Assembly (NCBI GenBank): GCA_947457615.1
Contig: CANGWK010000001.1
Span: forward strand, 79,044 to 143,043
Length of the DNA: 64,000 nt
Reading direction: 5' to 3'
Origin: Flavobacteriaceae bacterium
GTDB lineage: Bacteria > Bacteroidota > Bacteroidia > Flavobacteriales > Flavobacteriaceae
Shown here: positions 21,811 through 26,807 of the stretch, piece by piece
How positions within the stretch are numbered: the first letter of the stretch is position 1
How the letters are laid out: each line of letters opens with the position of its first letter
Translations under genes and position numbers: made by a program
The notes under the pieces: generated by a model
Told to the model about the DNA's origin: nothing
What the model saw: the letters and a program-made list of their open reading frames with translations, nothing else
Database searches by the model: none

Positions 21811-23415
21811 ATGAAAAAAATCATCCTAATTCTAGTCTGTATGTTGAACAGTTATATGTTTTCGCATACTTTAAATTACGAAAAAATTGTATTAAGACAT
21901 TGGTCTATTCAAAAAGATAATACTTTTATTGAAGGATCTTTTAGTAAATTAAAAAATGGATTAGTTTCTATTGAAGATGCGCAAAATAGAATTATTAATG
22001 TTCCTTTAGAATCACTTTCGGATGCCGATCAAGCGTATGTAAAGAAAAGAGAAGAAGCTATTATTTATTTAAATACTTCTATTCCTTCAGTAAAAAAGTC
22101 GGAAAATAATTCTCCTTTCTTAATAAAATCTTTACTGATTGTTATTTTTTTATTGGTTTTTGGGATATGTATTTTCAAAATCGCAGAAAGAAAAAAAATA
22201 AAATATTTAGTTCCAATACTTTTTGCTGGTTTAGTGATGACTTTATTTAGTTTTGGCAAAAAATTACTTACCACTACTGATCCTAACTTTGTAAATTCTG
22301 CTTTTATTCCATTCATTCCAAACGTTCATACTTCTTGGGATAGCAATTATTTTTATGTAGAAAGCAAAGGAATTGCTAACCACACTATGATGGTAGGAAT
22401 ATCCAATCACGGTTGGCAACAACAAGTACCAATTCCACAATGTTACATCGGTAATAACCATTGGAGTATCCCTTTGAATCCAGTAATAGCAGCTACTCCC
22501 ACCCTAATTGACAATGTACATTTTACTAGAGGTGCTATTGCTCTTGCTGCTAATGGAGTGCCAATTTTTAACTATCACACTAATACCGGTATTGATTCGT
22601 ATTTGGATGGACAATTAGATAACTATGGAGGTCACTGCGGTAAAGGAGATGATTATCATTATCATACTGCTCCTATTCACTTATATACATTAGGTCAAAC
22701 CTCACCAACTCTCCCTTGTGCTTTTGCGTTTGATGGGTTTGCCGTTTATGGTAGTTTAGAATCAGACGGAACACCAATGACAGCTCTGGATACTAATCAT
22801 GGCCATTATGGAACTAACGGAATTTATCATTACCACGGAACTGCAACAGCACCTTATATGATTGGGAGTTTCGTAGGTCAAGTAACTGAAGATGCGACAC
22901 ATCAATTAATTCCGCAAGCAGCAGCACATCCAGTCCGTTCAGAAAATTGGGGGCCTCTTGGTGGTGCACTTATCACTTCCTGTCTTGCAAATGCAAACAA
23001 TAATGGTTATAACCTTTCATACAGTTTAAATGGAACTCCAGGATATGCTACTAATTTTAGTTGGAGTGGCTCAACTTATACCTTTAATTATGTTACGCCT
23101 ACCGGAACTATTCCTACAAATTATAATGGTTTCAATCAATGTAACGTTCCATTAACCAACAATGTTTTTGCTTTGGATAATGCTATTACATTATATCCGA
23201 ATCCAGCAAAAGATGTTCTTCAAATAAATCTTGGAAATGATATTTTCGAAAATGACATTCAAAATATTGATATCTACGGAATTAAAGGAGATTTAATTTT
23301 AAAAACAAATAGTTTTAAATCTAATATTGATATAAAAAACTTATCTTCTGGAACTTATTTTGTTAAATTTCAATTTTCAAATGCACAGATAACTAAAAAA
23401 CTACTAGTAAAATAA
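21811..23415 (+). CDS. YHYH-domain protein with N-terminal SHD1-like domain, two internal hydrophobic helices and T9SS type-A CTD
   Basis: Signal peptide; RHWS..IEGSF..VPLESLSDADQAYV; GAIALAANGVPIF, GGHCGKGDDYHYH, FAFDGFAVYG, GIYHYH; CTD LYPNPAKD..GTYFVK..KKLLVK. Confidence 0.85.
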   Translation: MKKIILILVCMLNSYMFSHTLNYEKIVLRHWSIQKDNTFIEGSFSKLKNGLVSIEDAQNRIINVPLESLSDADQAYVKKREEAIIYLNTSIPSVKKSENNSPFLIKSLLIVIFLLVFGICIFKIAERKKIKYLVPILFAGLVMTLFSFGKKLLTTTDPNFVNSAFIPFIPNVHTSWDSNYFYVESKGIANHTMMVGISNHGWQQQVPIPQCYIGNNHWSIPLNPVIAATPTLIDNVHFTRGAIALAANGVPIFNYHTNTGIDSYLDGQLDNYGGHCGKGDDYHYHTAPIHLYTLGQTSPTLPCAFAFDGFAVYGSLESDGTPMTALDTNHGHYGTNGIYHYHGTATAPYMIGSFVGQVTEDATHQLIPQAAAHPVRSENWGPLGGALITSCLANANNNGYNLSYSLNGTPGYATNFSWSGSTYTFNYVTPTGTIPTNYNGFNQCNVPLTNNVFALDNAITLYPNPAKDVLQINLGNDIFENDIQNIDIYGIKGDLILKTNSFKSNIDIKNLSSGTYFVKFQFSNAQITKKLLVK

Positions 23416-23418
23416 TCA

Positions 23419-24624
23419 ATGAAAAAAATAGCATTTCTTTTTCTATCCTCTATATCCTTTGCACAAACTGTTACCAAATCAATAGCATTGTTGCCAGATA
23501 CAGGACAAACAACTAGTTATACTACAACTTTTGGCGAAGACCAGGATTATAGTATTAATGTTCCCTCTTTTACAAATAATGGGAATGGCACAATAACAGA
23601 TAATGTTACTAAATTAATTTGGCAACAAACGGATGGTGGTGAAATGACTATAGAAAATGCAATTACTTATTGCAATTCTCTTTCTCTAGGAGGATATTCC
23701 GGATGGCGATTACCTACCCCAATGGAGGCTATGAGTATTCTTAATTTACAAAAAAATAATCCTGCAATGGATATAGTATACTTCCCTTCTACAGGTGCAG
23801 AATATTGGTGGACCAACACGTTTCAATTTGGTGATAACACTAAAGTATGGTGCACAAATTCTGGCGGAGGAATTGGTAACAAACCAAAAACAGAAACAAT
23901 AAGTGCTGGAGGAACTAAAAGTTACCATGTAAGAGCAGTTAGAAATGTTATAACTACAGCAATTTTACCTAATCATTTTACGGATAATGGCGATGGAACA
24001 ATAACCGATAATGTAACCCAATTAGTTTGGCAAAAAGTACCCAATCCAAATATTTTCAATTGGGAACAAGCAATCAGTTATGCTGAAGGTTTAACTTTGG
24101 CAAGTGCAACGGATTGGCGGTTACCTAATATAAAAGAATTACAATCGTTAAACATGGATAGCGCTTCTAATCCTTCAGTGAATACAACTTATTTTAATAC
24201 CATTGGGATTCATAATTATTGGTCTTCTACAACACTTTTACCAAATTCTGCCAATTTAACTAGTGCATGGTATTGGAATACACAATTCGGAATTACCTCC
24301 CACGATATCAAAACCAATTTAAATTATGTAATTTGCGTAAGAGGAAATCCCGTTTTAAGTTCCTCAGAATTCATAGTGGAAAATAACGTTAAAGTATATC
24401 CAAACCCTGCATCGAATTATGTTGTATTAAATTTCCCAAAAGTTATAAATTTAGTGCAAATAGAAATGATAGACGTAAATGGGAAAATTGTTTTTACTAA
24501 AAAAGAAAAATCAATTTCAAACGAGTATAAAATCGATATTAAAGATTTTTCAGATGGAATATATTTTATTAATCTAAGCAGTGAGAATTTAAAAAACACT
24601 TATAAAGTACTTATAAAAAAATAA
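23419..24624 (+). CDS. Tandem DUF1566 (Lcl C-terminal-like) domain protein with T9SS type-A CTD
   Basis: LPDTGQT, two copies of FT(N/D)NG(N/D)GTITDNVT.L.WQ..WRLP..E..YW..V(R/I)(A/C)VR; CTD VYPNPASN..GIYFI. Confidence 0.85.
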   Translation: MKKIAFLFLSSISFAQTVTKSIALLPDTGQTTSYTTTFGEDQDYSINVPSFTNNGNGTITDNVTKLIWQQTDGGEMTIENAITYCNSLSLGGYSGWRLPTPMEAMSILNLQKNNPAMDIVYFPSTGAEYWWTNTFQFGDNTKVWCTNSGGGIGNKPKTETISAGGTKSYHVRAVRNVITTAILPNHFTDNGDGTITDNVTQLVWQKVPNPNIFNWEQAISYAEGLTLASATDWRLPNIKELQSLNMDSASNPSVNTTYFNTIGIHNYWSSTTLLPNSANLTSAWYWNTQFGITSHDIKTNLNYVICVRGNPVLSSSEFIVENNVKVYPNPASNYVVLNFPKVINLVQIEMIDVNGKIVFTKKEKSISNEYKIDIKDFSDGIYFINLSSENLKNTYKVLIKK

Positions 24625-24626
24625 TC

Positions 24627-26234
24627 ATGTTTAATAAAAATTTCTTTATTGTTTTATTCTTTATTGGTTTTAATAATTATGCGCAACAGCGAAATGTTGT
24701 TTTAATTATTGTTGATGATTTAGGAAAAGATTACTGTGATATTTATCCAGATCACGGAGCTAATGTTGTTAATTTAACAAATGTAAGAAGACTTTTACCT
24801 CGTGGAGTTGTTTTTAATAATGCATGGTCCAATCCTTTATGTTCACCAACTCGCGCTGGAATTCTTACTGGGAGATATAGTTTTAGAACTGGTGTAGGCG
24901 ATGTTGTTGACGGTGGTAACACAAAATTAAATATTAATGAAAAAATTATTCCAAAGGTCTTGAATATTTATTCACCTAATGGAATATCTAAAGCTTGTAT
25001 AGGAAAATGGCATTTAACAACCTTTGCACCATTAGGGTACAATTACCCGACAACAATGGGTTTTGATCATTTTGAAGGAAGTTTAACAGGGGCTTTAGGA
25101 CAACCGGGACAACTAGTAACAGGGTTTAATAATTGGACTAAAATTACCAATGGTGTAAGTTCAAACTGTACTAATTATGCCACAACCGAAAATGTTAACA
25201 ACGCTATATCCTATATAAATAGTCAACCAGCAACAAAACCTTTCTTTTTATATTTAGCGTTTAATGCACCACATACCCCCTATCATTTACCTCCTGCTAA
25301 TTTGATTACCAATACTAATTTATCTGGAACACAAGCAGATATTACTGCTAATCCGGTACCTTATTTTCAAGCTATGACTGAGGCTTTGGATAAAGAAATA
25401 GGACGCTTTTTTGACTATTTAATTAGTTCAGGAAAATGGGATACTACCGATATCATTTTTATTGGCGACAACGGTGATGATTCTTTAGTGGCACAATCTA
25501 ATCCATCAAAAGGAAGTATTTATCAAGCAGGAGTTACAGTTCCATTTATTATTTCTGGACCAGATGTAGTAAATCCTAATAGAACTAATAATTCTTTAGT
25601 AAATACTGCTGATTTATTTGCTACAATTTTAGAACTTTTTGGAGATAGTAATTGGCAAAGTCAAATACCAACAACTATTGTTGATAGTCATAGTTTGTTG
25701 CCGATACTGTTAAACCAAACTACATCCGTAAGAACATGGGAATTTACAGAGATTTTTAAATTGATGCCATCATCCGGAGATGGAAAAGCAATAAGAAATA
25801 CCGATTATAAATTAATGAAGTTTGATGATGGTACTGAAAAGTTTTTCAACTTAACCAATACCCCAGTAGAAACTAATAATCAAAATTTACTTTTGGGCAC
25901 CCTTACTCCTAATGACATTACTAATTATAGCTACTTATGTAATCAAATGACAACTTTAGTTGGAGGTCCCTCCTATTGTAATCCATTACTATCTGTGGAT
26001 AATTCTACTTTTGAAAACAACGAAATAAAAATATTTCCAAATCCTTTTCATTTCAAAATAAATTTAAAATCCTATTCCGGAAATGAAAATTACGAACTAT
26101 ATTCTAATTTAGGACAACTTATTTTTAAAGGAAAATCTATTGAAAATCAAGATTTTTCTGCGTTAGCAGATGGTATCTATTTCTTGAAAATAACCGACAA
26201 AACAAGCTCCACTTTTAAGTTGGTTAAAGAATAA
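24627..26234 (+). CDS. Secreted Cys-type (formylglycine) sulfatase with T9SS type-A CTD
   Basis: IIVDDLG, CSPTRAGILTGRY (CxPxR), GKWHL, NAPHTPYH, GDNG, KGSIY; CTD IFPNPF..GIYFLK. Confidence 0.9.
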   Translation: MFNKNFFIVLFFIGFNNYAQQRNVVLIIVDDLGKDYCDIYPDHGANVVNLTNVRRLLPRGVVFNNAWSNPLCSPTRAGILTGRYSFRTGVGDVVDGGNTKLNINEKIIPKVLNIYSPNGISKACIGKWHLTTFAPLGYNYPTTMGFDHFEGSLTGALGQPGQLVTGFNNWTKITNGVSSNCTNYATTENVNNAISYINSQPATKPFFLYLAFNAPHTPYHLPPANLITNTNLSGTQADITANPVPYFQAMTEALDKEIGRFFDYLISSGKWDTTDIIFIGDNGDDSLVAQSNPSKGSIYQAGVTVPFIISGPDVVNPNRTNNSLVNTADLFATILELFGDSNWQSQIPTTIVDSHSLLPILLNQTTSVRTWEFTEIFKLMPSSGDGKAIRNTDYKLMKFDDGTEKFFNLTNTPVETNNQNLLLGTLTPNDITNYSYLCNQMTTLVGGPSYCNPLLSVDNSTFENNEIKIFPNPFHFKINLKSYSGNENYELYSNLGQLIFKGKSIENQDFSALADGIYFLKITDKTSSTFKLVKE

Positions 26235-26237
26235 ATT

Positions 26238-26807
26238 ATGGTTATTTTTTCTACTGCACTTCAGTACCTCTCAATAGGATTTACCCATGTTGTTCCGTAC
26301 GGTTTTGATCACTTGCTTTTTATCTTAAGTATTTTCTTTTTAAATTCTAATTTGAAATCCAAAGCAATTCAATGTTCGGTTTTTACTCTTGCTCATTGTT
26401 TGTCTTTAGGATTAGTAGTATCTGGTTTAATATTTCCTAACAACAATTATATAGAACCCTTAATTGCTTTTTCTATTCTGTTTATCTCTATTGAAAATAT
26501 TATTCAAACCAAAGTAAATCCCCACCGATTATTAATCCTTTTTGGATTTGGATTAATTCACGGAATGGGATTTGCTACTGCGTTAAAAGAAATCGGAATT
26601 CCCAAAGATCTATTTTTTACTTCATTATTATCTTTTAATATTGGAGTAGAATTAGGTCAAATCACGGTCCTTTTAGCAGTCTATTTTTTAATTAGTAAAT
26701 GGTTTGCACACAAAACCTGGTATAAAGAAAGGGTGGTTTACCCAATCTCTTGTTTGATAGGATGTGTAGCATTGTATTGGACCATTGAGCGTATATTAAT
26801 TTTGTAA
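26238..26807 (+). CDS. HupE/UreJ family membrane protein
   Basis: GFTHVVPYGFDHLLF, FTLAHCLSL, EPLIAFSI, FGLIHGMGFA, FNIGVELGQ. Confidence 0.85.
   Translation: MVIFSTALQYLSIGFTHVVPYGFDHLLFILSIFFLNSNLKSKAIQCSVFTLAHCLSLGLVVSGLIFPNNNYIEPLIAFSILFISIENIIQTKVNPHRLLILFGFGLIHGMGFATALKEIGIPKDLFFTSLLSFNIGVELGQITVLLAVYFLISKWFAHKTWYKERVVYPISCLIGCVALYWTIERILIL

Follow-up and report, generated by a model that had tools for sequence, protein, structure and literature searches.

Gene and domain organization

The window is a stretch of 64,000 nucleotides from a Flavobacteriaceae bacterium (assembly GCA_947457615.1, contig CANGWK010000001.1, positions 79,044 to 143,043 of the forward strand). It contains a gene for a predicted type IX secretion system (T9SS) cargo protein, here called the precursor. 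Along its 534 amino acids this protein consists of a signal peptide, an SHD1-like domain, a hydrophobic helix (helix 1), a basic loop, a second hydrophobic helix (helix 2), a YHYH domain and a type-A C-terminal sorting domain (CTD) of the T9SS (Table 1). The arrangement suggests, with a probability of roughly 70%, that a single gene encodes a two-part precursor, in effect a bacterial polyprotein, which is cut at an internal signal peptide formed by the basic loop and helix 2. A sequence-only reading of this DNA had listed the same elements, and Pfam, hydropathy and AlphaFold2 recover all of them; the letters it gave for the loop (KIAERKKIKY) and for the end of helix 2 (LFSFG) also agree with the sequence.

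The domains differ in how readily they are recognized by profiles. The CTD matches Por_Secre_tail (PF18962, residues 461-533) with 56.4 bits against a Pfam cut-off of 27 and TIGR04183 of NCBIfam with 41.5 bits against a cut-off of 23, and its modelled fold resembles the CTDs of RemA and NucA bound to the translocon (Foldseek, TM-score 0.70-0.82). The YHYH profile (PF14240) matches residues 217-316 with 48 bits (cut-off 25), covering profile positions 1-110 of 193. The SHD1 profile (PF03983) matches residues 28-81 with 19.8 bits (E = 6.8e-4), which is below the gathering cut-off of 23.7; two members of the family do exceed it (P0201 with 25.5 bits and P0310 with 27.6 bits). In the model, the fold of this domain corresponds to the SHD1 domain of yeast Sla1 (2hbp) with a Foldseek probability of 1.0, a TM-score of 0.71-0.75 and a root-mean-square deviation of 1.5 A over 52-55 residues.

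Hydropathy in a 19-residue Kyte-Doolittle window identifies the signal peptide (residues 3-22), helix 1 (~103-125, peak 2.93) and helix 2 (~130-149, peak 1.89). The AlphaFold2 model, built from a 74-sequence alignment, has a mean predicted local distance difference test score (pLDDT) of 86.4. Its N-terminal half contains strands within residues 29-65, a helix at 71-89, the two hydrophobic helices at 101-124 and 130-147, an exposed coil of lower confidence at 148-157 and a further helix at 158-168. Downstream of residue 168 the YHYH core, a beta-sandwich and the CTD are well ordered.

Table 1. Features of the precursor gene and of the genes that follow it in the window (aa, amino acids; nt, nucleotides; an arrow marks a cut)
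Feature	Position (nt)	Strand	Basis or remark
Precursor gene	21811..23415	+	single open reading frame, 534 codons/aa
N-terminal Sec signal peptide, aa 1-18, predicted cut [S/A]↓H before His19	21811..21864	+	hydropathy, homolog conservation
His19, predicted first residue of the mature N-fragment	21865..21867	+	conservation
SHD1-like SH3-fold domain and next helix, aa 28-89, predicted periplasmic	21892..22077	+	Pfam, Foldseek, pLDDT 90-94
Transmembrane helix 1, aa 101-124, predicted stop-transfer anchor (periplasm to cytoplasm)	22111..22182	+	hydropathy, AlphaFold2
Basic, predicted cytoplasmic loop, aa 125-131, AERKKIK, n-region of the proposed internal signal peptide	22183..22203	+	charge, conservation
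Helix 2, aa 132-147, h-/c-region of the proposed internal signal peptide	22204..22251	+	length, conservation, lipobox alignment, model
Proposed cut S147↓F148	between nt 22251 and 22252	+	
Coil and conserved TTTDPxFVNSAF.PF segment, aa 148-168, N-terminus of the cargo if released	22252..22314	+	conservation, model
YHYH domain core and the beta-sandwich after it, aa 169-445	22315..23145	+	Pfam PF14240
Type-A T9SS C-terminal sorting domain, aa 461-534	23191..23412	+	PF18962, TIGR04183, Foldseek
Tandem Lcl_C/DUF1566 protein with CTD	23419..24624	+	Pfam; next gene in most of the best 80 loci
Sulfatase with CTD	24627..26234	+	Pfam; in only part of the related loci
HupE_UreJ_2 inner-membrane protein	26238..26807	+	Pfam, 135 bits; closes the cassette in many loci across families

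A T9SS cargo with internal hydrophobic helices

Cargo of the T9SS is usually taken to be a soluble periplasmic protein with one N-terminal signal peptide. The precursor holds two internal hydrophobic helices, according to both hydropathy and the model, and would be soluble in the periplasm only after a cut behind helix 2, which the comparison of sequences suggests. The T9SS machinery is present in the genome (SprA with 2780 bits and GldM with 517 bits in profile searches), and the YHYH-CTD part is predicted to be exported through it. The genome carries 71 CTD-bearing frames above the cut-off. In a genome-wide screen of 64 evaluable proteins, the stretch from residue 36 to the CTD was scored for its most hydrophobic 19-mer, and only the precursor has a mature 19-mer of 2.0 or more (2.93, against 1.91 for the next protein and a median of 1.17). 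The paradox to which the sequence-only reading had drawn attention, a cargo with an internal membrane helix, is therefore real within the cargo set of this genome. The CTD of the precursor ranks 11th of 74 matches in a search of the genome (60.4 bits) and so is not decaying.

Ordinary type-A CTD cargo is represented in the same genome by two paralogs consisting of signal peptide, YHYH and CTD (L001 and L002). Like the precursor, these have a Sec signal peptide, a YHYH-family domain and a Por_Secre_tail CTD. However, 63 of the 64 cargo proteins lack any hydrophobic helix past the signal peptide, whereas in the precursor SHD1, helix 1 and the loop are inserted ahead of what appears to be the signal peptide of the cargo. 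The precursor also differs from both paralogs in belonging to a separate YHYH subfamily and in carrying the extra TDPxF..AF.PF segment. Immediately upstream of one of the paralogs (L001:142-2568, contig C4) is a di-haem cytochrome c peroxidase-like gene that contains two CxxCH motifs, an arrangement that hints at redox or metal chemistry for YHYH proteins.

Conservation as a single reading frame

More than 120 protein clusters with 58-92% identity span all 534 residues as one frame. A scan of one genome per species identified at least 593 related loci, and locus-level results given here refer to the best 80 of these (L004-L083). They derive from Flavobacteriales, Crocinitomicaceae, Saprospiraceae, Chitinophagales, Cytophagales and Ignavibacteria-type metagenome-assembled genomes (MAGs). 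A single continuous frame is present in nearly all of them, with a few short or N-terminally incomplete frames at contig ends. In a set of 401 evenly sampled Bacteroidota genomes the N-terminal module occurs in nine, always within open frames of 472-592 amino acids, whereas 15 further genomes from the same genus all lack it. Judged by these comparisons, the family is patchy but old.

When residues 1-150 are used as the query in an exhaustive profile-free search, the module appears only before YHYH domains of the same subfamily, some of the proteins being extended by BACON or Lcl_C domains. Short matches to the module (100-240 amino acids) are contig-end fragments or frameshifted reads in which the sequence derails after helix 2. 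Homologs split into two genes, which the sequence-only reading had raised as a point to check, were rejected because the short matches are such fragments and none of the nine genomic matches is short; no genuine split was found among the >120 clusters, the best 80 loci or the nine sampled genomes. The hairpin of helices 1 and 2 is missing from P0201, P0354, P0355 and the fragment P0218; the SHD1 domain is retained in these proteins.

The same data bear on the question of an artefact. A run of eight A residues at 22176-22183 lies in the lysine-rich codons of the loop, and the +1 frame meets a TAA just past helix 1. It is conceivable that a frameshift or an assembly error at this run has fused a gene for an SHD1 membrane protein with a gene for a signal-peptide-YHYH-CTD protein, or else that the latter is produced separately from an internal start codon. 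However, one continuous frame is kept in hundreds of independent assemblies, on which ground a fusion at the A run was rejected, and the only split locus (L040) is a frameshifted long-read assembly in which a neighbouring gene is broken too. An internal start was rejected likewise, since methionine occurs in the loop of just 7 of 121 homologs and at no conserved position. An artefact of either kind is extremely improbable.

Helix 2 as a proposed internal signal peptide

Helix 1 is found in nearly all family members and comprises 17-21 uncharged residues, or 24 in the AlphaFold2 model. The loop behind it carries a net charge of +3 (the median, equal in all three clades), with K129 present in 111 and K131 in 91 of 121 homologs. 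Measured from the last charged residue to position -1, helix 2 has a median length of 16 with both quartiles at 16, and the N-terminal signal peptide has a length of 15-16. In 121 close homologs helix 2 ends in L-[Y/F]-[S/G]-F-[T/A/G/S]-K-K. Position 147 is S or G in all of these, and F148 is present in 120. Across the best 80 loci the sole constants at this end are Phe and, just before it, a small residue (S, G or A), and the proposed -3 residue is L, I or V. The modelled helix 2 also stops at residue 147.

The resulting site, [L/I/V]-[Y/F]-[S/G]↓F, mirrors the N-terminal site of the same protein, [I/V/M]-[F/Y]-[S/A]↓H, where 116 of 121 homologs have S or A at -1 and 120 of 121 have His at +1. 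Sites of the form x-F-[S/G]↓Q in other cargo of the genome are similar to it as well. The region thus has the features of an internal signal peptide: a basic n-region behind a stop-transfer helix, an h- and c-region of signal-peptide length, a small -1 residue and a permissible -3 residue. That helix 2 and its basic n-region act in this way had been proposed in the sequence-only reading, and the proposal is supported, at the level of sequence comparison, by length, by the small -1 residue, by a lipobox in a sister clade (see below) and by conservation as one frame. The same reading had implied a cut after LFSFG (G149). This position was rejected, as it is T, A, G or S in close homologs and K, R, H or E in distant ones, and is less consistent across the family than S147.

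A sister clade with a lipobox

Two distant matches, P0196 and P0224, have no CTD and carry a Cys immediately after helix 2. A search with P0196 yields 121 homologs, which are treated here as the sister clade. The majority (112/121) are CTD-less proteins of ~450 amino acids that keep the signal peptide, the N-terminal His, SHD1, helix 1, the basic loop and helix 2. Every one of these 112 has a lipobox Cys right after helix 2, mostly as [I/F/L]-Y-A-C-K and in general as [L/I/F]-[Y/A]-[A/S]↓C-K, followed by a Thr/Ser/Pro-rich tether. The criterion for a lipobox was [LVI][ASTVI][GAS]C where a signal-peptide-like helix ends, and the 112 CTD-less members all have one. The other nine homologs, which lack the Cys, are longer; a CTD or a CTD-like FlgD_ig domain is present in most of them, and P0310 shows neither.

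In a joint alignment, lipobox positions -3, -2, -1 and +1 correspond to L145, F146, S147 and F148 of the precursor, so that the A↓C bond falls on S147↓F148. The precursor has Phe at the position of the lipobox Cys and is therefore not a lipoprotein. A maximum-likelihood tree of YHYH cores separates a CTD clade, which includes the precursor, from a mainly lipobox clade with an SH-aLRT (approximate likelihood ratio test) support of 98. A well-supported CTD subclade is nested in the lipobox clade, so that CTD and lipobox must have been exchanged at least twice.

A lipobox makes sense only when the helix in front of it functions as a signal peptide that signal peptidase II takes off. Its presence in the sister clade implies that signal peptidase II is likely to process these proteins after helix 2. 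The strict choice between CTD and lipobox indicates that in both clades whatever follows helix 2 departs from the inner membrane, and this is the strongest support for an internal signal peptide. The alignment also makes S147↓F148, rather than the bond after G149, the likely site for signal peptidase I.

The precursor might instead be cut by a protease of the rhomboid, site-2 or periplasmic kind, which would free YHYH-CTD from the hairpin, for instance inside helix 2 or at the coil (148-157). Helix 2 does contain conserved helix-breaking residues (P135 and G140) of a type favoured by intramembrane proteases, and the coil is exposed in the model. However, the one thing kept universally where helix 2 ends is a small residue that falls exactly on the -1 position of the sister-clade lipobox, and helix 2 equals the N-terminal signal peptide in length. 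The linker between helix 2 and the T-D-P-x-F...A-F motif furthermore varies from 0 to ~14 residues among diverse loci, which leaves no fixed recognition site for a protease. Cleavage by an enzyme other than signal peptidase I is thus unlikely.

It may also be that no cut occurs at all. The protein would then be an inner-membrane enzyme anchored by three segments or by the hairpin, with both domains in the periplasm and a CTD that is idle or used for docking there. This would fit the fairly conserved helix 2 and the hairpin-less relatives, which hold SHD1 and YHYH on one chain and so leave room for joint action. However, the rank of the CTD within the genome argues against decay, the strict alternation of CTD and lipobox after helix 2 is sensible only if the downstream part leaves the inner membrane, and processing of a lipobox by signal peptidase II normally entails a cut. 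An uncleaved protein is accordingly considered quite improbable.

Several points nevertheless weigh against cleavage at an internal signal peptide followed by retention of the N-terminal part. In the rare hairpin-less relatives (P0201, P0354, P0355 and the fragment P0218) the SHD1 domain is joined directly to the T-D-P-x-F segment and YHYH-CTD. SHD1 would there be secreted along with the enzyme, so that it is not bound to remain in the membrane. Conservation in helix 2 (Y132, P135, G140 and L145) exceeds that of the N-terminal signal peptide and goes beyond what a disposable signal peptide needs, although packing of the hairpin in a retained fragment would explain this. Two lysines follow soon after the proposed cut, which is unusual in exported mature regions. 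Finally, the cut itself is deduced from the comparison of sequences. An odd relative from a metagenome (P0143, 241 amino acids) runs from a signal peptide through SHD1 and helix 1 straight into a CTD and lacks both helix 2 and YHYH. Such a layout would put the CTD in the cytoplasm, and this protein is probably a deletion remnant.

Proposed route of the precursor

Taking the two-part precursor as the preferred reading, its topology, its cleavage and the fate of its N-terminal fragment are predicted as follows. The N-terminal signal peptide would lead the chain through Sec and be cut before His19, placing the SHD1-like domain in the periplasm. Helix 1 would then halt transfer and anchor the chain in the inner membrane, and the basic loop would remain on the cytoplasmic side, in keeping with the positive-inside rule. 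Helix 2 would restart export as an internal signal peptide, and signal peptidase I would cut at its periplasmic end, most likely at S147↓F148. In the sister clade, signal peptidase II would act at the same site and release the YHYH part as a lipoprotein.

Two products would result. The first is a fragment of ~129 residues (His19-Ser147) with a periplasmic SHD1-like domain on an inner-membrane helical hairpin, and the second is a soluble YHYH-CTD cargo that would fold in the periplasm and exit via the T9SS. This division into a freed YHYH-CTD part and a membrane-bound SHD1 part, already put forward in the sequence-only reading, is backed by the comparative evidence given above for the internal signal peptide, from which the cut is deduced. 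No result supports the further proposal that release is regulated. Conservation of the SHD1 motif, and that of helix 2 relative to the N-terminal signal peptide, suggest that the His19-Ser147 fragment is retained and not degraded.

Possible role of the SHD1 fragment

His19 is invariant in the 74-sequence alignment, which extends to 44% identity, and is the only invariant residue among amino acids 1-164. Family members examined in the P0196 clade and in loci L004-L083 all have His directly behind the first signal-peptide cut. The sister clade has H-x-G-G-H in its place, and distant members have His-rich tails. A free N-terminal His might serve in metal binding, or it might cap an active site in the manner of an inhibitor; both are speculations from sequence. 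A histidine brace with H30 as the second His was considered and rejected, because H30 is not conserved in the wider family.

The YHYH domain contains an invariant cluster of His and Asp residues (H275, D280, D281, H283, H285, H332, H340 and H342) in the motifs DDYHYH, NHGH and YHYHG. It is predicted to bind Zn through three His and one Asp (PMC7824862; bioRxiv 10.64898/2026.10.18.759936). The modelled core (pLDDT 86.4 for the model) has no structural match in the PDB by Foldseek and only a weak match to a phage YHYH protein, and a sequence search of the PDB with the precursor returns matches to the CTD only. Residues T156, P158 and F165 of the segment ahead of the core are invariant in closer homologs (at least 58% identity), and the segment is also present in the hairpin-less variants.

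The hairpin-less relatives speak for an action of SHD1 on, or together with, the YHYH part and against a membrane protein that works independently. One tentative and rather doubtful suggestion is that the membrane-tethered SHD1 fragment is an escort, which would be synthesized and reach the periplasm shortly ahead of its partner and would hold, load or silence the YHYH metallo-domain until the T9SS, or Lol in the lipoprotein clade, takes it away. This could be achieved if the N-terminal amine and His19 contacted the His/Asp metal site, by analogy with the N-termini of protease inhibitors. Another possible route is binding of the conserved TDPxF..AF peptide, at the new N-terminus of the cargo, in the groove of SHD1.

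Genomic context

In the CTD clade the precursor heads a cassette that consists of a gene for a 407-amino acid CTD protein (in some loci), Lcl_C/DUF1566-CTD, sulfatase-CTD (in some loci) and HupE_UreJ_2, and this order is found in several Bacteroidota orders. The gene for the ~407-amino acid protein lies between the YHYH and Lcl_C genes in ~25 loci (e.g. L008:7626-8849), and its product has a CTD and no other recognizable domain; this gene is absent from the window. Fusions of YHYH and Lcl_C, 830-940 amino acids in length, occur in loci of Chitinophagaceae-type MAGs (L063, L066, L075 and L077) and also in P0126.

The Lcl_C/HupE cassette is missing around two genes of the lipobox clade, which have unrelated neighbours. 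Pairing with HupE_UreJ_2 was therefore rejected as the reason for the hairpin, as it is not required for the N-terminal module. Given the variable neighbours between clades, the pair of N-terminal module and YHYH is the constant unit. One gene of the lipobox clade (P0236, locus L084, Emticicia aquatilis) adjoins an HxlR-type regulator and a PEBP-family gene, with a multicopper oxidase a few genes away, and lies outside the Lcl_C/HupE cassette.

Relation to known systems

Natural internal signal peptidase sites are, to our knowledge, rare in bacteria. A literature search on YHYH with T9SS, bacterial SHD1, internal signal peptides and internal lipoboxes found no account of the precursor family, of T9SS cargo with internal helices or of an internal lipobox. 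The closest parallel known to us is FbcH of Bradyrhizobium japonicum, a cytochrome b-c1 precursor reportedly cut at an internal signal peptide (work attributed to Thony-Meyer and colleagues, about 1989-1991). One gene there likewise gives a membrane-embedded N-terminal product and a periplasm-facing C-terminal product, and the cut follows a signal-peptide-like helix behind cytoplasmic positive charges, as proposed for the precursor. However, both products of FbcH stay in the inner membrane in one respiratory complex, whereas the C-terminal product of the precursor is predicted to be exported by the T9SS or, in the sister clade, as a lipoprotein. The N-terminal product also differs in being a small SH3-fold hairpin protein, and the site exists in signal peptidase I and signal peptidase II versions.

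The SH3-like fold of the N-terminal domain is shared with yeast Sla1 SHD1 (2hbp; 25-27% identity) and with SHD1 repeats of secreted bacterial proteins, and the motif W...G.F....G.V......LS..D..Y is common to the precursor and these SHD1 domains. In Sla1 the domain is cytosolic and binds NPFxD endocytic signals. In the precursor, by contrast, it is predicted to be periplasmic and occurs as a single copy between an invariant N-terminal His and a membrane hairpin. Viral and eukaryotic polyproteins show the same alternation of stop-transfer and signal sequences, with cuts by signal peptidase on the trans side and products at a fixed 1:1 ratio. These, however, are processed at the endoplasmic reticulum, whereas the precursor comes from a bacterial chromosome, consists of only two parts and would be coupled to secretion across the outer membrane.

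Significance

If the proposed cleavage is correct, the precursor family, with members in at least 593 species-level genomes, would be the first class of T9SS cargo for which an internal signal peptide brings about release from a precursor in the inner membrane. Pipelines for secretomes and topology will wrongly label the family as membrane proteins where they discard sequences with internal helices. The family also opens a way to study YHYH (a predicted metal enzyme for which no structure has been solved) and bacterial SHD1, both domains of unknown function, and with such a design a secreted enzyme could be co-produced with a membrane partner in a fixed stoichiometry. The paired clades, one with a CTD and a site of the signal peptidase I type and the other with a lipobox, would represent a natural experiment on the exchange of export signals. 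Should the tentative escort role of the SHD1 fragment prove true as well, internal signal peptidase I or II sites behind a hairpin may be a general and overlooked route by which Bacteroidota produce a secreted protein and its inner-membrane partner at a ratio of 1:1.

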